NCBI GenBank assembly: GCA_963702005.1
Contig: OY969696.1
Location: 3,616,001 to 3,680,000 of the forward strand
Source of the DNA: Candidatus Aminicenantes bacterium
Lineage (GTDB): Bacteria; Acidobacteriota; Aminicenantia; Aminicenantales; JAFGBC01
Length of the DNA stretch: 64,000 nt
Direction: 5' to 3'
This document shows, piece by piece, positions 7,360 to 14,161 of this stretch. A program made the position numbers and the translations under genes. The notes beneath the pieces are model-generated. The model saw only the letters and a program-made list of their open reading frames with translations, had not been told where the DNA came from and did not search any database. Position 1 is the first letter of the stretch; the number at the start of each line of letters is the position of its first letter.

Positions 7360-7424
7360 GCGCTTGCTCCTCCGGAACGGTCTCCCCCCTTAGTTAACAT
7401 ACCGCTCCCGCCATGTAAAGCTTC

Positions 7425-8449
7425 TCAGGCCTTCTGCATGTCGCACAGAAAGCCGGGGATGACGGCCAGGGAGCCGCCCGCCAGCGCGGCTTTGATCGGA
7501 CAGACCCAGCAGTGCCCGATCCGGGGGCATAAAAAGCAGGGCCCCCGGGGCGTTTCGGACCGGTCCATGGAAAACCGGGCGTAATGGGAGGCCGTCCGGC
7601 GCGCGGCCGCTTCGGTCCATCGCGACGGGAGCCGGACCGACCCGAATGAATAGCGCCGTAAAGCGGCCGTATCGCCGCGGTCCCGAATATAATCCGCGAA
7701 CAGGACGCAGCCCCAAACTCGTCCCTCGGGATCCACCGCCATCCGGTCTTTCCCGGCGCTGCAATAGCGAAGGCGGCGGGGCGCGGCCTCGCGAAAGTTC
7801 ATGACCGGGCTTCGGTCGATCGTACCGTATCGGTCGAGGACGCGGAACCTCAATCGCTTCAATTCGCGCCGCAGCCGGCCGATGTCCGCGGCCGCCCACG
7901 GCTCCAATACCGACAGGCTGTAGCGGACCCGAGGAACGCCCCGCTCCAGGAGCTCGATCAGGGTCTCGGCCAGGGACCCGACCCCGGAGGGCGTGAAAAC
8001 GCTGTTGGTTTCGAGCCGGATCCGGGGCCGGGATGCGATCCGGTCGATCAGGGCGAGAATGCCCTCCCGGCTGCCCGCCCGCCTCTGGATGTTCTGCCGG
8101 GTCCCGTCATAGCTTAAGGTGACCGCGAACCGCTCCGCCTCGAAAAAGCCGAGGACAGCCTCGTCAACCAGGCTGCCGTTGGTGGTGATCGAGAAGCGCG
8201 GACGCCGTCCCCTTCCCCGACAGGCCGCCCGAACGCGGGCGACCGTCTCGCGGATCAGGTCGAACTCGAGAAGCGGCTCTCCCCCGTAAAAGGCGAGGAC
8301 GAAATCCCGGTTCAGGCGCGGCAAAAAAAAACGACGGCCCGGCGGGCGACCGCATCCGTCATCCGGGTCGGCCGACGCGTCTTATAGCAGTAGCGGCAGC
8401 GGAAATTACAGTCGTCGGTGACGACGAGCGCCAGCAACCCTAAGCCCAT
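7425..8449 (-). CDS. Radical SAM/SPASM enzyme (anSME/peptide-maturase type), split by a 1-nt frameshift at a T9 run
   Basis: ATG 8449 gives MGLGLLALVVTDDCNFRCRYC..., which stops at 8312. The adjacent frame carries FYGGEPLL, ITTNG, SYDG and SPASM Cys motifs (CSAG...EGRVWGC; CFLCPRIGHCWVCP; PGFLC). One extra T in the run at 8323-8331 joins them into 341 aa. Confidence 0.88.
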
Positions 8450-8661: not shown

Positions 8662-10443
8662 CTATTCTCCTTTGCTGAAGATTAAATCGCGGGATTTCAT
8701 TTGCTCGAAATTCGGATTGATGTCCAGGTAGCGTTTATGAATGAAGCGCATCGCATCCGTCCGTTTGTCTTTGATAAACTTCCTGAGGATCTCTTCGGCT
8801 TTGGCCGTCTCGCCGATGCCGGCGAACATGGACGCGAACCAGACGGCGTTTTCATGAATGGGGTTACTGAGGGCCGAGTCCAGCCGCTCGATTTCCGCGA
8901 CGATCCGCCGGACGGCCGCGACATCATTCCGCCGAGCCGCGATCATTCCCATCAGAAGGAGGGCGTCGACCTCGTTGTCCTGGTTCGCGAAGCGGCGGAT
9001 GACGGCTTCGCTCCGGGCGAGCTCGCCTTGGTAGAAAAGGATTTCGGCGCGGCGAAATTCGACCAGAAGGGGGTCCGGGGTCCGCTGGATGATGTCGCAG
9101 ACCCTGAGAGCCTTGTCGAATTCCCTGCGGAGCATCAGCAACTCGGCATAATTGACGTTGAAGGGCGAACTCGGGTTGGACAGGAATCCCCTCTCCTTGT
9201 AAAGAAGAGCCCGGTCGAGATCCGCCTCGCGTCCCTCGCGGCCGAATTTGAGGAACCAGCAATAGCCCGCCATGGAATTCAGCGGGCCGTCGTTGGGAAA
9301 TTGGGCCAGTCCGCGCTGGGCAAGGGCGAAATAGGTTTTAACGCTATCGGTCCCTTGGATGAGGTCGCGGATGAGGAGGGCCTCGATCCGGAGCTTAAAA
9401 TATTCGGGCAGCTTGGGGTAGAGAGCTTCGGCCTGTCTGATCAATCCCTCCGCCTTATCCAGCCAGCGAAGGTCCATATCGATGCCGAGGTTGAGGAAGT
9501 TGACATAGCATTGGGCCAGACCGAGCAGAGCCGGCGCGAATCGCGGGTATTTGTTGACGACCCTGTTGAAAAGCCTCAGCGCCAGCTCATTGGACTCCTT
9601 GTTGTCGAGGCGGCTGTAGTAGGAAGCCTGGTGGTAGAGCGTCCAGGGATCCTGCCGCTCTCCGGAAATCCGGCTCAGGAGGAAATAGCCGGTCAGGTAG
9701 AGTTCGAGGGTGTCGGGCCCCGAGGGTTCGTCCGCGGCCGCGCTCCCGATTGAAGCGGAAATTTTCAAGGTCTCGAAAACCCGCCTGCAGACGTCGCTCA
9801 GGCAGGCGGTCAGCCCCTCGACCGGCTGGTCGTAGTCCTTTGTCCAAACGACTTTCTTGTTCTTCAGCCGCTGGAGGGAAACGGTCAGCCGCGAGCGGCC
9901 GTTCTCCCTCTTCAGAGCGCCTTCCAGCAGATAGTCCGGTAGATCGGTCGGCCCCAGGACGATCTGGGAGCGGGGATCTCCGGAGCTCTCCGACGGCAGA
10001 GGGGTGATCCGAATCAGCCCGGATGAGGAGAGCCTCCTCTGGATTTCCGCCCGAAATCCCTCCCCCAGAAAAAAATCCTGTTCGGAGGACCCGGGGTCGA
10101 CGGCGGCCAGGACCGCGATCGCCGGAGTGCGCGAAGTCGTCGAGAAAATCCGAGTTTTCATGAGAATAAGCACGGGCGTCAGGACGAGGAGGGCCGCGGC
10201 GGTCGGAAGCATGAATCGGCGGAATCCCGGCCTTTCCGCCTCCGTGAGAGACACGATCCGTTTCTTGGCGAGCCACTCGTCGAGCTCGGATCGATAGGCG
10301 AAAACCGGGGACCGGCGGGACTCAGCGTCGATCCTCCGGACGGGAAGTCCGCACTCCGCCTCCCACCTCGCGCACGTCTTCCGGTCGCACTTTAAATAAC
10401 GGGCGATTTCTTTCCAGGAACGCAGAATTCCGTCTTCCGGCAT
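8662..10443 (-). CDS. Membrane-anchored HTH / TolB-N-like / TPR protein (putative one-component regulator)
   Basis: N-terminal LRSWKEIARYL...RWE..GLPV..VFAYRSELDEW (excisionase/MerR-like HTH), one TM helix, a PAIAVL TolB-N-like domain, then TPR-like helices. Confidence 0.75.
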   Translation of the reverse strand: MPEDGILRSWKEIARYLKCDRKTCARWEAECGLPVRRIDAESRRSPVFAYRSELDEWLAKKRIVSLTEAERPGFRRFMLPTAAALLVLTPVLILMKTRIFSTTSRTPAIAVLAAVDPGSSEQDFFLGEGFRAEIQRRLSSSGLIRITPLPSESSGDPRSQIVLGPTDLPDYLLEGALKRENGRSRLTVSLQRLKNKKVVWTKDYDQPVEGLTACLSDVCRRVFETLKISASIGSAAADEPSGPDTLELYLTGYFLLSRISGERQDPWTLYHQASYYSRLDNKESNELALRLFNRVVNKYPRFAPALLGLAQCYVNFLNLGIDMDLRWLDKAEGLIRQAEALYPKLPEYFKLRIEALLIRDLIQGTDSVKTYFALAQRGLAQFPNDGPLNSMAGYCWFLKFGREGREADLDRALLYKERGFLSNPSSPFNVNYAELLMLRREFDKALRVCDIIQRTPDPLLVEFRRAEILFYQGELARSEAVIRRFANQDNEVDALLLMGMIAARRNDVAAVRRIVAEIERLDSALSNPIHENAVWFASMFAGIGETAKAEEILRKFIKDKRTDAMRFIHKRYLDINPNFEQMKSRDLIFSKGE

Positions 10444-10478
10444 GAGGCTCTACGTCGTTTAAGATAAACCTGAGTAAA

Positions 10479-10506
10479 ATTATATCCCTCTGGGAAGTGA
10501 AGTCAA
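10479..10506 (-). promoter_or_regulatory. Sigma70-type promoter of the HTH-TPR/peptide/rSAM operon
   Basis: TTGACT-16 nt-TATAAT on the minus strand, about 35 nt upstream of ATG 10443. Confidence 0.75.
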
Positions 10507-10555
10507 TATGGGAAGGATATCCCGGCCCTTGGGGATTGGGCCGTGTTCCGAAATG

Positions 10556-10614
10556 GAAAAATCGGGAGCGGGAAGGGAACTGTCGGCGTCGGCCGCAGCT
10601 CCCCTCCCCTTCCC
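10556..10614 (-). terminator. Probable intrinsic terminator after the dehydratase-family locus
   Basis: GGGGAGGGGAGCUG...CAGUUCCCUUCCC stem followed by GAUUUUUCCAUUU. Confidence 0.5.
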
Positions 10615-10699
10615 TGCTCTCCCCCAAAACTCCCCGTCCTCGGCGTCCTACGAGGGTGCCAACAACAGCGAGCCGTCTGCCGCGACGAGACTCGTCACG

Positions 10700-10789
10700 C
10701 TACAACTGAAAGATGAATCAGGACCCCTCGAGAATCAATACCTTGGCGGGCTTCTCCGCATTATTCCCCATTATTACCCATCCTCTCAT
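10700..10789 (-). CDS. Micro-ORF MRGWVIMGNNAEKPAKVLILEGS-UGA(Sec?)-FIFQL
   Basis: ATG 10 nt after the upstream stop. In-frame UGA at 10720-10718 is followed 26 nt later by a GU-loop hairpin. Motifs are shared with the micro-ORF at 13031. Confidence 0.4.
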
Positions 10790-10799
10790 TCGTCGAAAA

Positions 10800-12875
10800 T
10801 CAGGCCTCCCGGCCCTCGACGACGGACAGGAACGACTCGATCCTGAGCCGGATCTGCTGACTGTCCGAAGGGGAATAATCGGTCTCGATCATAAGATAGG
10901 GAAGGCCGCGTTTGTCCTCCACGTGGCGACGGACGGCCCGTGCCTCAACGCTGTAAGTATGGCAAGCGCTCCAGACGAGGTCGATGACACCCTGGGGATG
11001 GAACCGCTCGATGAGCTCGTCAAGGAGCTCGAACCGGCCCGTGTTAGGCGTCATGCATGAGCAGGGCAGATGAAAATATTTCCGGGCGATCGCTTCGAGC
11101 GGATCGCCCTCGAGGCTGATATCCTCGACCAGCGGCTTGAGGCCCGTGCAATTTTCCTGAGCGACCACGACCGCTCCGGCTTCCTCGACGATGTCGATGA
11201 CTTTTTCGGCGCCGTGGGGCATCGGAACTCCCGTCATCAGGATGCGCGTCTTGCGGGAGGGAACGGCCTTGGCCCGGGCCTGCTCGATGACCGCCCGATA
11301 GGCCGCCAGGTCCTGGGGGATCCCGGAAATGAGGTTCTTGGCGTCCAGAATCTCGCGCCCGCTGAGCCCTCGTCCCCCGAATTCGGCGATCGTCCTGCGC
11401 AGGCGCCGCTCCTTGTTCATGAGCCGGATCGCCCGGCGGAGGCCCGTCCGGGTGATCCTAGCCCCCGTCAGTCTCTCGAGACGCTTCTTGAGGAGCCTGA
11501 CCTCGGACAGCCAGTGGGCGAAGGCTTCTTCCTGATCGGGCTTTTGGGTCAGCTCGAGCACGTGCATCGGCTTTGTCCGGCCCATAAGCTCATACATCTT
11601 CTTCTTGCCGTCGCAGGTCGTTTCGGCCACGATGAGGTCGGCCATCTCAAAAATCGGGTTGGCTTCCTCGAGCATGAAGCCGTAGGAGGACTTGATGAGG
11701 GGGCAGAGGTTGACCGGGAGTTCCCGCTCTCCGGCCAGGGCCATCTCGTGGCTTCCGCCGCAGGCGCAGACGGGAACGGCTCCCGCCGCCAAGATAAGCT
11801 CGCGGGGCGTGTATTCGCAGAAAATGCAGACGATCTTCTTCCCGGACGCCTTTGCCTTCCGGGCGTGATCGATGGCGATCGTGACCATGCGGTCGAACCT
11901 CTTGAGGGCCGGCACGGAGTGGAGATGAGCGGCCGCGCCCGAGGAGCCGGATTCGACCGGCCGCGTTGAGGACGCGGGAGCGGCTTCGGACGTTCCGCAT
12001 CGTGCCGGCTCGCCGTCCCGTCCGGCCGAGGGTCCGATCGGACCACTTTCCAACTTAGCCTTAGGGAGACGGCCCGATGCCAGGACCGTCCTCTTTCCGA
12101 TTTTCCGGGCCGCAAGCAGGGCCGCGCCCAGAGCGCCCGTCAGTCTGGGATCCTTAGGAACCCATAAGCGTTCCCTGAGCTCCCGGCCCAAAGCGATGAC
12201 CATGGCCCTGTTCAAGGCCACCCCTCCGGTGAAAACGACGGGCGCTTCGAATCTTCTCCGCTCGGTCAACCCGGCCACCCTCCTGGCGATGGCCCGGTGA
12301 ACGCCGGCGGCGATCTCCGGCCTCCCCACCCTTTTAGCTAGAAGGCCGATGACCTCGCTCTCGGCGAATACGACGCAGGTCGAGCTGATCTCGAGTTCGC
12401 GGCGGGCCCCGGCGGCGAGCTCGGCCATCCCGTCGATGTCCGTCCTCAGGATGCCGGCCACGACTTCGAGGAAGCGGCCCGTGCCCGCCGCGCAGCGGTC
12501 GTTCATGGCAAAATCCTTGACCGAGCCTTCGGCGGACAGATAGATGGACTTGCTGTCCTGGCCGCCGATATCGATTACGGTCCGCGCCCGCGGAAACAGG
12601 GCCAGCGCGCCCACGGCATGACAGGTGATCTCGGTCACGACATCGCCGCCGAGCTCGGCCGTGTAGCGCCCGTAGCCGGTCAGGATGGTGGCGGCGACAT
12701 GAGAGGGCCGCAGCCCGGCCTCGTTCAGAACGGCCTTGAAGATCCGTTCGGCGTCGGAGCGATGATCGCCGGTCGCGTCTGCGACATGCGCGGCTACCAC
12801 GACGCGGCGGCCGGTGTCGAAGAGGATCGCTTTGACGGCCCGGCTTCCCAGGTCGATACCGGCGGTGATTTTCAT
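10800..12875 (-). CDS. Fusion of ATP-dependent activase (HgdC/BcrAD/YjiL-type) and double-cubane-cluster / 2-hydroxyacyl-CoA dehydratase-family protein (YjiM-type)
   Basis: N-half has GIDLGS, TGYGR, TEITCHA, DIGGQDSK, MNDRCAAGTGRFLE, STCVVFAESE and FTGGVA. After a low-complexity linker, the C-half has FCEYTP, NLCPLIKSSYG, ETTCDGKKKMYE, ENCTG, CSC, ACHTY and IETDYS. Confidence 0.9.
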   Translation of the reverse strand: MKITAGIDLGSRAVKAILFDTGRRVVVAAHVADATGDHRSDAERIFKAVLNEAGLRPSHVAATILTGYGRYTAELGGDVVTEITCHAVGALALFPRARTVIDIGGQDSKSIYLSAEGSVKDFAMNDRCAAGTGRFLEVVAGILRTDIDGMAELAAGARRELEISSTCVVFAESEVIGLLAKRVGRPEIAAGVHRAIARRVAGLTERRRFEAPVVFTGGVALNRAMVIALGRELRERLWVPKDPRLTGALGAALLAARKIGKRTVLASGRLPKAKLESGPIGPSAGRDGEPARCGTSEAAPASSTRPVESGSSGAAAHLHSVPALKRFDRMVTIAIDHARKAKASGKKIVCIFCEYTPRELILAAGAVPVCACGGSHEMALAGERELPVNLCPLIKSSYGFMLEEANPIFEMADLIVAETTCDGKKKMYELMGRTKPMHVLELTQKPDQEEAFAHWLSEVRLLKKRLERLTGARITRTGLRRAIRLMNKERRLRRTIAEFGGRGLSGREILDAKNLISGIPQDLAAYRAVIEQARAKAVPSRKTRILMTGVPMPHGAEKVIDIVEEAGAVVVAQENCTGLKPLVEDISLEGDPLEAIARKYFHLPCSCMTPNTGRFELLDELIERFHPQGVIDLVWSACHTYSVEARAVRRHVEDKRGLPYLMIETDYSPSDSQQIRLRIESFLSVVEGREA

Positions 12876-13075
12876 CCAACGCTCCTTTCAGTGGGAATCT
12901 GGCCGCTCCCCCTGAAAGGAGCCGGGCGGGGCTTTTCAGACGAGAGCGGAATTCGGGCTCTGACCGGGAAGGGATCGAACCGATCCCCTAAATCCCGCTC
13001 AGGACGAGTTGAGGATGAGCCATGGTCTCATCGTCCCGCTCTCCTTTCAAGAGATGCCCCGGAGTAGGCTCCGGA
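12876..13075 (-). promoter_or_regulatory. Structured 5' leader with uORF, SECIS-like hairpin and SD-sequestering stem
   Basis: Perfect 11-bp pairing of GCUCCUUUCAG (12922-12912) with CUGAAAGGAGC (12891-12881, main SD). Hairpin AGGGGAUCG-GUU-CGAUCCCUU (12989-12969). 5' hairpin CCGGAG-CCUA-CUCCGG. Confidence 0.65.
12936..13031 (-). CDS. Leader micro-ORF MRPWLILNSS-UGA(Sec?)-AGFRGSVRSLPGQSPNSALV
   Basis: Strong SD AAAGGAG 9 nt before ATG 13031. UGA at 13001-12999 is followed by a SECIS-like stem-loop. Next stop is at 12938-12936. Confidence 0.5.
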
Positions 13076-13096
13076 TCAGATCCGTCGGTGAGAGAA

Positions 13097-13125
13097 TAAA
13101 TACCATCGGGGGACTCTAAAGTCAA
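13097..13125 (-). promoter_or_regulatory. Putative sigma70 promoter for the leader/dehydratase transcript
   Basis: TTGACT-17 nt-TATTTA with an upstream TG. The -10 is imperfect. Confidence 0.45.
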
Positions 13126-13165
13126 GGCGGCAACCTAGCTACAGCGGCGAAGGCTCACGACGGAA

Positions 13166-13194
13166 TTGACTTCATACCTCCGTTTTAATATTCT
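13166..13194 (+). promoter_or_regulatory. Putative sigma70 promoter for serine hydrolase
   Basis: TTGACT-17 nt-TATTCT. Confidence 0.55.
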
Positions 13195-13237
13195 CGTTGA
13201 GAACGAACATGGAAGGACGGCTCGCATGGAGGGAGTC

Positions 13238-14161
13238 ATGAAGAAATTCGAAAGAACGGCTGTCGTCGGACTCATTATCGTCATTGGACTGGCGTCGACC
13301 TTGGCGGCGGCCGATAAGGCCGCGATCCTCGATCAGAAGTTCGAGGCGGGCTTGAAGGCCGTCGCCGACGGCTTGGACGGAGTCATGGGCTATGCCATCA
13401 AGGATATCAAAACGGGGAAAGCCTATCTTCTCAACGAGAAGGAGGTCTTCCCCCAGGCGAGCTCCATCAAGATCGCGATCCTGCTCGAGGTCTTCAAGCG
13501 GGCCGAGGAGGGAACGCTTAAGCTCGACGAGAGGATCGACCTCACCCCGGACAAGAAGGTCGCCGGGAGCGGCGTCCTCTACTATCTCGGCTTCCCGTCG
13601 CTCAGCCTTTCCATCAAGGACATCTGCGTCCTGATGATCGTCCTCTCCGACAACACGGCCACGAACCTCCTGATCGACCGGGTCGGGATGGAATCCGTCA
13701 ACAAGCGGATGGACGCGCTCGGCCTTCCCGCCACCCGGCTACGGCGCCGGATGATGGACCTCAAGGCCGCCGCGGAAGGCCGCGAGAACGTCTCGACGCC
13801 CCGGGAGATGATGACTTTACTCGAGAAAATCTGGAGCGGCGCCGTTCTTAAAGAACCCCTGCGGACGGGGATGCTCGATATCCTGTCTATCGAGAAGGAG
13901 AGCCCCCTGCGCGCCGGCGTCGCGGCCGTCGCAGAGGACATCGCCGTAGCCGAGAAGCCGGGCGAGCTCGAAGCCGTCCGTTGCGACTCCGGGATCGTCT
14001 TCCTCAAAGACCGGCCTTACATCATCTCGGTCATGACGACCTATCTCAAGCGGGACGGCGACGGCAACCCGGCCATCGCGGCCGTCTCGCGCCTGGCCTT
14101 CGAGCATTTCCTGAGGCTCAAGCGCTCGAGCGACCTGGGCCGGGTCGTTTCGATGAAGTAA
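13238..14161 (+). CDS. Secreted serine hydrolase, class A beta-lactamase-like fold
   Basis: GGAGG SD, signal peptide, SxxK (ASSIK), SDN and KPG motifs. Confidence 0.85.
   Translation: MKKFERTAVVGLIIVIGLASTLAAADKAAILDQKFEAGLKAVADGLDGVMGYAIKDIKTGKAYLLNEKEVFPQASSIKIAILLEVFKRAEEGTLKLDERIDLTPDKKVAGSGVLYYLGFPSLSLSIKDICVLMIVLSDNTATNLLIDRVGMESVNKRMDALGLPATRLRRRMMDLKAAAEGRENVSTPREMMTLLEKIWSGAVLKEPLRTGMLDILSIEKESPLRAGVAAVAEDIAVAEKPGELEAVRCDSGIVFLKDRPYIISVMTTYLKRDGDGNPAIAAVSRLAFEHFLRLKRSSDLGRVVSMK

Follow-up and report, generated by a model that had tools for sequence, protein, structure and literature searches.

A conserved upstream ORF with a SECIS-like hairpin as a candidate selenocysteine-decoding leader of activase/double-cubane reductase genes in Aminicenantes

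Can a UGA codon in front of a gene, rather than within it, be decoded as selenocysteine (Sec), and could that decoding serve to control the gene? The question is raised by a 64,000-nt stretch of DNA from a Candidatus Aminicenantes bacterium (assembly GCA_963702005.1, contig OY969696.1, positions 3,616,001 to 3,680,000; hereafter the window, whose own numbering is used unless a contig is named). Here, a minus-strand gene for an activase fused to a double-cubane-cluster reductase is bracketed by two small open reading frames (ORFs) that end in UGA, each followed by a hairpin resembling a selenocysteine insertion sequence (SECIS). An earlier note, drawn from the sequence, took these micro-ORFs for a related pair, suggestive of selection at the peptide level, and offered them either as selenopeptide substrates or partners of the reductase or as Sec-sensing regulatory peptides. 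The observation was confirmed in part and the interpretation supported in part. Both micro-ORFs and both hairpins are present exactly as described, and the upstream element is, judged by its sequence conservation, a real conserved element. It is probably a selenocysteine-decoding leader ORF that would couple expression of the gene to Sec-tRNA/SelB status, and the regulatory option is thus the best explanation here. The downstream micro-ORF and its hairpin are outside the leader system.

The upstream micro-ORF runs on the minus strand from an ATG at 13031 to a TGA at 13001-12999 (MRPWLILNSS*) and would be the first part of a leader ORF of 25-32 codons in the 5' leader of the reductase gene (Table 1). 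What exceeds chance for this element is conservation across five clades, not a single UGA with a hairpin behind it, a combination that is not rare in the genome. A scan for perfect hairpins (stem of 7 bp or more, G[GU]N(N) loop) with a TGA 16-24 nt ahead of them returned 49 cases, of which ~14 are genuine-looking Sec sites and ~35 chance, and control trinucleotides returned 15-51 cases. Loci carrying the leader were gathered by a protein search for orthologs, one exact-pattern scan and two covariance models (R1 and R2), giving 12 loci and 11 distinct sequences (L144 and L145 are identical). The five clades are A (the window's own locus with L138 and L139, whose ortholog proteins are 86% and 81% identical, respectively), B1 (G018, G223), B2 (L143, L144), C (L142, G222) and D (G146, G150). 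All 12 leaders lie directly upstream of a fused activase/double-cubane reductase gene or of a methyltransferase-HGD-D-reductase operon. The exact-pattern scan of 246 genomes of the order gave five matches, three of them true, those in G189 and G040 lying in unrelated contexts. R1 gave three matches in 151 genomes of the class, and R2 gave 2 of 87 in family f4, 3 of 27 in family f3 and no leader at 100 other double-cubane-cluster protein (DCCP) loci, mostly from Planctomycetota.

Across these members, the first UGA is kept in 11/11 distinct sequences, never as UAA or UAG and never as UGU or UGC, and it persists in G150 although the GAGCGG that follows it has become GAGAAU. A G-first triloop starts exactly 18 nt past this UGA in every sequence, on a stem of 7-9 bp in which 98.6-100% of cells are paired and two pairs have changed on both sides (U-A to C-G and A-U to G-C). 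An AUG (GUG in L139) stands in frame 6-13 codons before the UGA, without an intervening stop, in all 11. Past the UGA the frame stays open for 18 codons in clades B, C and D and for 20 in clade A, up to a distal stop. This second stop occupies a homologous position throughout but differs in codon: UGA in A, UAA in D and UAG in the remaining clades (B1, B2 and C). The peptide preceding the first UGA, by comparison, varies (MR(P/S/A)(W/R)L(I/V)LNSS, MNTGNL, MSEAMFRHNL, MIRTTHRL, MRRFMRTNCR); the LILxxS and MRxW motifs that had suggested peptide-level selection are not retained in upstream leaders outside the closest clade, and that suggestion is not supported.

We read the UGA as a candidate Sec codon rather than as a plain stop because it is invariant while the distal stop uses all three stop codons, and because an in-frame start is found in every clade in contexts that cannot be aligned, against a base rate of 5-7% (5.1% for ATG and 7.0% for ATG or GTG before random genomic TGAs; n=5913). 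The same reading is favored because in every case the read-through frame closes at the base of a stem that sequesters the Shine-Dalgarno (SD) sequence of the main gene, and because a generic scan of DCCP-related loci (ATG or GTG, short ORF, TGA, hairpin) gave 21 matches for TGA, whereas three control trinucleotides gave 0 each. The upstream leader accounts for 11 of the 15 distinct matches in that scan; the match at L173/L198 was rejected as a leader, lying inside a coding gene.

Decoding of this kind would depend on Sec machinery, for which the earlier note had proposed a check, and selA (561.7 bits), selD (364.6 bits), selB (255-288 bits) and tRNA-Sec (73.8 bits) are all encoded in the window's own genome (G000), in one cluster at C1:765451-770102. 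Each of the six leader-bearing genomes (G000, G018, G223, G146, G150 and G222) carries selA, vs 109 of 246 in the order. The organism's own SECIS elements were sought in G000 with a six-frame Markov screen, for TGA with coding sequence on both sides, together with a hairpin-first scan. Codon log-odds, used in the first two de novo selenoprotein screens, were dropped as swamped by antisense shadows, and the formate dehydrogenase Sec site was dropped as a SECIS reference, there being no FdhA above cut-off in G000. The genuine-looking Sec sites form two groups, two thioredoxin (Trx)-fold/TPR proteins and twelve BNR/Sortilin-type paralogs. SECIS elements of the Trx-like group have a 7-9 bp stem and a GGU, GUU or GUC triloop 18 nt from the UGA in 12/12 genes from the six leader-bearing genomes, and in those of the twelve BNR-type paralogs the loop is GGUC or GUUC and lies at 19 or 22 nt. 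The upstream hairpin, in its 18-nt distance and G-first triloop, shares the geometry of the Trx-like elements, and the earlier description of it as SECIS-like holds. In E. coli and Moorella, SelB is known to contact the G and U of the apical loop. The loop reads GUU, GUC or GGU in 7/11 leader sequences, and GGA (G223) or GGC (L144, L142, G222) in the other four.

How read-through might reach the gene is suggested by the expression platform. Past the distal stop, a small G+C hairpin separates an anti-SD strand from its complementary SD, which precedes the main-gene start codon. The anti-SD begins 2-5 nt past the distal stop in clades B, C and D and 13 nt past it in clade A; SD and anti-SD are complementary in 11/11 sequences, and the sequences themselves differ between clades. 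In free leaders, the unpaired probability of the GGAG is at most 0.09 in 9/11. A MAFFT consensus fold of the platform over all clades left clade A unalignable with the rest and returned 0 pairs, and RNAalifold without clade A recovered, besides the inner G+C hairpin, a small AGAG:CUCU hairpin as an alternative, with no SD helix. The SD:anti-SD pairing is therefore taken from per-sequence folds.

From these features we infer leader translation, Sec insertion and the direction of control. If Sec-tRNA(Sec)-SelB-GTP is available, the UGA would be read as selenocysteine and the ribosome would continue for 18-20 codons to the distal stop, situated at the base of the stem-loop in which the anti-SD sequesters the SD, where it would invade or mask the anti-SD. 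If selenium is lacking, translation would terminate at the UGA, ~60 nt earlier. Given two alternative stop positions, the place of the leader ribosome would thus report selenium status to the expression platform. We favor the direction in which read-through would open the SD and the gene would be ON with selenium, because the distal stop abuts the anti-SD in 4/5 clades and because the literature ties double-cubane reductases to selenium, though footprint models do not agree on it. In these thermodynamic models, in which a ribosome footprint is masked at a given stop and the SD unpaired probability is computed, a footprint at the distal stop lifted that probability in the 4/11 sequences of clades C and D, to 0.25-0.72 from 0.00-0.09, and gave 0.13-0.19 in G018, G223 and L143 and 0.00-0.03 in clade A and L144; the effect is weak in B1 and nil in clade A. 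Alternative pairings are also available, namely of the CUCU in the anti-SD with an AGAG lying past the distal stop and, in clade A, three GAGCGG copies (the conserved CCGCUC can also pair with those at 13039-13034 and 12907-12902). With footprint effects that differ between clades and such pairings available, the direction favored here is tentative.

Several observations weigh against a recoding leader and should be set beside those that favor it. Its members come from one bacterial order and a few unplaced metagenome contigs, and as kin they are not independent; selA in 6/6 leader-bearing genomes vs 44% of the order is weak evidence. The open frame past the UGA is uninformative, since the two alternative frames (0-1 stops) are open as well. 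Outside clade A the SD of the leader itself is poor, with GAGG just 2 nt from the AUG in B1 and B2 and weak purine runs in C and D. The conserved GAGCGG and CCGCUC strands are left unexplained by the model. In clade A, that of the window, the SD stays shut in the footprint model in all three states (0.00-0.01), and in G018 and L143 the SD is no less open with the footprint placed at the first UGA (0.32 and 0.46) than with it at the distal stop (0.19 and 0.15). Four of the 11 leader loops are without the U that is present in 12/12 Trx SECIS loops. Finally, of the signs that the earlier note had looked for at homologous loci, the UGA position and a covarying hairpin are kept upstream, but Cys (UGU or UGC) takes the place of the UGA in 0/11 distinct sequences; a regulatory leader, for its part, would not need Cys-bearing homologs.

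If the UGA were an ordinary stop, the hairpin and its flanking strands would form a structured leader (riboswitch-like, protein-binding or a plain translational attenuator) in which SelB plays no role. We consider this unlikely, even though the hairpin does lie between complementary GAGCGG and CCGCUC with the SD-sequestering platform behind it, which is a riboswitch-like layout, and the window's own leader as a whole folds better than shuffles (z = -4.2); the missing U in some loops and the many chance UGA-hairpin pairs of the genome point the same way. The hairpin alone covaries. In the outer helix, by contrast, 3/6 pairs never vary, departures are mismatches without compensatory change, and the helix is broken in G150, where UGA, spacing and hairpin all remain; it was accordingly rejected as a riboswitch stem ('P1'). 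No relevant Rfam match was found in a gathering-threshold scan of the whole window or in a scan of 10440-13260 at E up to 10, only chance matches of miRNA and CRISPR models on the terminator-like hairpin downstream. Also against an ordinary stop are an exact 18-nt spacing and G-first triloop equal to those of the genomes' own SECIS elements, and a first stop that never changes before a distal one that does. A quite improbable variant keeps SelB and makes the hairpin its binding operator, SelB occupancy modulating translation without productive Sec insertion being the signal. The SECIS-like geometry would be the same, and the E. coli selAB leader is said to offer a precedent; an operator, however, needs no in-frame AUG and UGA at decoding distance, which are kept in 11/11, and no read-through frame ending beside the anti-SD.

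Two further possibilities concern the peptides themselves. We give very little weight to the read-through product as a functional small selenopeptide, whether carrier, substrate or partner of the methyltransferase or reductase enzymes, and nothing favors the earlier proposal of a reductase substrate or partner in particular. The residues after U are fairly alike across clades (A-A/G-R/F-Q/K/R-G-S/P-G/V-R-S) and a Cys lies two residues before U in G146 and G150. This likeness, however, coincides with the nucleotides of the hairpin, in which one compensatory change of the stem replaces Ser by Pro. Both the tail and the N-terminal part vary freely, the leader peptide matches no NCBIfam family, and its place before a platform that sequesters the SD is typical of a regulatory leader. 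That the downstream micro-ORF and hairpin form a second member of the system is hardly credible. This ORF runs on the minus strand from an ATG at 10789 to a TGA at 10720-10718 (MRGWVIMGNNAEKPAKVLILEGS*), followed by a hairpin at 10699-10681 (CGUGACGA-GUC-UCGUCGCG) with an 8 bp stem. It is the single best peptide match to MRPWLILNSS (8/12) among 35,990 ATG-started ORFs of 10-40 aa genome-wide, by a score chosen post hoc (identities in the first six and last six residues). The short-motif resemblance noticed earlier is striking by that score, but neither nucleotide homology nor conservation stands behind it: the best local score between the upstream and downstream regions, 21, was equaled by 43/500 shuffles and is not significant, and the element was rejected as a duplicate of the leader. 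The leader covariance models do not match it, its loop starts 26 nt past the UGA rather than 18-22, and an in-frame UAG comes five codons past the UGA, before the hairpin. Its region is absent in L138, keeps some nucleotides in L139 with the TGA lost and the frame broken, and is occupied by a convergent gene in G018. The idea of a conserved pair bracketing the reductase gene is thus not borne out for its downstream half, which we treat as chance or, at most, a decayed relic.

Table 1. Coordinates, within the window, of the candidate leader, the reductase gene and its 3' flank.
Feature	Position	Strand	Remarks
Putative promoter of leader transcript, TTGACT, 17 nt, (TGG)TATTTA	13097..13125	-	read by eye
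SD GGAG of leader ORF, 9 nt 5' of AUG	13041..13044	-	identical in L138 and L139; clade A only
Candidate leader ORF through UGA, MRPWLILNSS-U-AGFRGSVRSLPGQSPNSALV, distal stop UGA 12938-12936	12936..13031	-	translated with TGA=U
Candidate selenocysteine codon UGA	12999..13001	-	invariant in all family members
SECIS-like hairpin AGGGGAUCG-GUU-CGAUCCCUU	12969..12989	-	9 bp stem (one G.U), triloop GUU, loop start 18 nt past UGA
Conserved CCGCUC	12944..12949	-	can pair with GAGCGG at UGA (13000-12995)
Anti-SD strand GCUCCUUUCAG	12912..12922	-	begins 13 nt past distal stop; minimum free energy fold pairs it with 12891-12881
Main-gene SD CUGAAAGGAGC, sequestered, 6 nt spacer, AUG 12875	12873..12891	-	
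Main (regulated) gene, 691 aa	10800..12875	-	activase (BcrAD/BadFG-type ATPase) fused to double-cubane-cluster reductase (HGD-D fold)
Downstream micro-ORF and GUC-loop hairpin in 3' untranslated region	10681..10789	-	not conserved, outside the system
Long G+C-rich imperfect hairpin, then AUUUUU	10557..10625	-	probable terminator, monocistronic transcript

The 691-aa product matches PF01869 (2.1e-56) and PF06050 (1.4e-98) in Pfam, and NF040772 double_cubane (405.5 bits, cut-off 350) and TIGR00241 (240 bits) in NCBIfam; a beta-lactamase-family gene is its divergent neighbor. The putative leader promoter has equivalents of the type TTGACA-N17-TAGAAT or TGGTA at the same place in G018, G223, L143, L144 and L139, and was not called by a consensus promoter scanner, its second hexamer being without the final T. 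At the other end, the terminator-like hairpin is kept in L139 and is outlined by the chance miRNA-model matches (10556-10626), and a terminator scanner did not call it. Between it and the gene of a 593-aa TPR protein (8662-10443) is a promoter-like site, TTGACT-16-TATAAT, with 11/12 consensus positions (10479-10506, minus strand). With so near-consensus a site just past the terminator hairpin, the reductase gene is probably monocistronic in the window. Farther along, a tRNA-Val (GAC) at 7827-7915 on the minus strand overlaps the listed ORFs 7390-7899 and 7425-8324; it is the sole tRNA found by ARAGORN, and a tRNA-like identity of the GGUUCGAUCC hairpin was rejected. The 299-aa 'radical SAM' frame near this tRNA scores 27.2 bits, below the Pfam cut-off, and may be a spurious or mis-started ORF.

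Gene content behind the leader differs among its members. Behind the G146 and G222 leaders lies an operon of an S-adenosylmethionine (SAM) methyltransferase, HGD-D-fold genes and the fused activase-reductase. The full arrangement is seen at L225 (G146 C5:160500-169400, minus strand 8646-3243), in the order 277-aa SAM methyltransferase, HGD-D-fold ORFs of 246 and 461 aa, and 717-aa activase/double-cubane fusion. The best NCBIfam matches of the 277-aa protein are sub-threshold (DVU_1556 family, ArsM-like), and such an enzyme beside the reductases is in keeping with ideas of methyl-selenium or organometallic chemistry. A 28-codon ORF lies between leader and reductase gene at L136 (G223, about 1625-1711), and one of 14 codons at L135 (G018, about 1620-1665). 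The start of the 28-codon ORF resembles the methyltransferase N-terminus (MK..L.DVQGVYSG) and its end the HGD-D C-terminus (..RRRRA*), and the short ORF behind the G223 and G018 leaders looks like a deletion scar, left where the first operon genes were lost and the leader kept. Among same-genus genomes, no full-length activase/double-cubane gene was matched in G001 (92% complete, none) or in G002 (a 109-residue fragment); gene and leader look accessory within the genus.

The genuine-looking Sec sites found elsewhere in the genome deserve mention in their own right. The secreted thioredoxin-fold and TPR proteins carry U-x-x-C in place of CxxC in a Thioredoxin_7 domain (G000 C1:1013502, plus strand, and 2163945, minus strand; L233-L244 in five relatives). 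They occur as several paralogs per genome, with one in-frame TGA in every copy found (16 matches) and a highly uniform SECIS (ACUGCUG-GGU/GUU/GUC-CAGCAGU). The twelve secreted BNR/Sortilin-Vps10-type paralogs, all on G000 C1 outside the window, have an in-frame UGA in the context '..GG-U-..VYRSVDGG' (T position of the TGA: 756866, 759043, 761161, 773567, 781499, 872843, 2078302, 3456209, 3597567, 3599647, 3974490 and 4137330), and their SECIS hairpin, CGUCUACA-GGUC-UGUAGACG, is formed by the Asp-box motif codons themselves. Five of these genes flank the selA-selD-selB-tRNA-Sec cluster. Their best NCBIfam match is the F510_1955 glycosylhydrolase family (171.5 bits vs a cut-off of 175), which is not flagged as selenoprotein, and, on sequence grounds, the paralogs may represent an undescribed selenoprotein family. 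Other intergenic UGA-hairpin candidates in G000 (780180, 3595306, 711491 and 2567880) lie inside long open frames and were rejected.

The proposed leader draws together features of several known systems. Leader-peptide translational attenuators with SD sequestration are known from the ermC and cat type, and the trp and his leaders sense charged tRNA. With these it shares a short upstream ORF, a ribosome whose position is proposed to decide the anti-SD:SD helix, and the sensing of one charged tRNA; it differs in that stop-codon recoding is proposed instead of sense-codon stalling, with a dedicated elongation factor and a cis hairpin needed. The E. coli selAB 5' leader is reported to contain a SECIS-like element, a finding attributed to Thanbichler and Bock in 2002. 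That case reportedly likewise has a SECIS-type hairpin in a 5' leader serving control, but requires no decoded UGA or ORF, and its target is the sel operon itself. As in bacterial SECIS elements generally, a hairpin with an apical loop of the G(G)U type stands a short, fixed distance past a UGA, in a genome with Sec machinery, whereas here the UGA belongs to a very short leader ORF within the 5' untranslated region and is no enzyme active-site codon, the peptide is not conserved, 4/11 loops are without U, and no Cys-containing homolog is seen. A published parallel comes from Treponema primitia, where attenuation within fdhF(Sec) depends on selenium (Matson et al. 2013, PMC3892789). There, too, selenium supply is read through UGA/SECIS decoding and affects downstream expression; the enzyme itself, however, carries the Sec codon concerned and the effect falls on transcript elongation inside that gene, whereas we describe a separate leader ORF with an SD-sequestering platform before a gene without a Sec codon. 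A full-text literature search, supplements aside, found no published Sec-decoding leader ORF.

What double-cubane reductases do is an open question in the field, and in two bioinformatic studies their link to selenium is one of co-occurrence. According to the main text of Haft & Gwadz (bioRxiv 10.1101/2022.07.06.499078), 955 of 970 NF040772 double-cubane proteins scoring >400 bits are in SelD-positive assemblies, and a selenium role for these proteins is raised there; the window's own protein, at 405.5 bits, lies above that score. Nowhere does this main text use the word 'leader'. DCCP is likewise described as 'provisionally linked to selenium metabolism', within methyl-selenium gene clusters, in a passage of PMC10418091. 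Both sources, in the parts cited, tie the same enzyme family to selenium use as the leader would, but by co-occurrence and gene neighborhood only.

We regard it as an even proposition that these sequences describe a natural selenium sensor made from the genetic code, in which a read-through ribosome opens the ribosome-binding site of a methyltransferase/double-cubane-reductase operon. If true, this would be the first recoding-based attenuator and would bring to leader-ORF control a sensing principle that is new, terminate or recode; as a compact 100-nt module, it could be used as a selenium-responsive genetic part. For the enzymes it precedes, it would be the first regulatory evidence that ATP-driven low-potential reductases act in selenium (e.g., methyl-selenium) metabolism or need selenium for a cofactor. 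The leader would then offer a testable handle on double-cubane reductase function, as evidence independent of the co-occurrence studies. Selenocysteine decoding in bacteria would, moreover, extend beyond the making of selenoenzymes to a regulatory read-out of selenium status.

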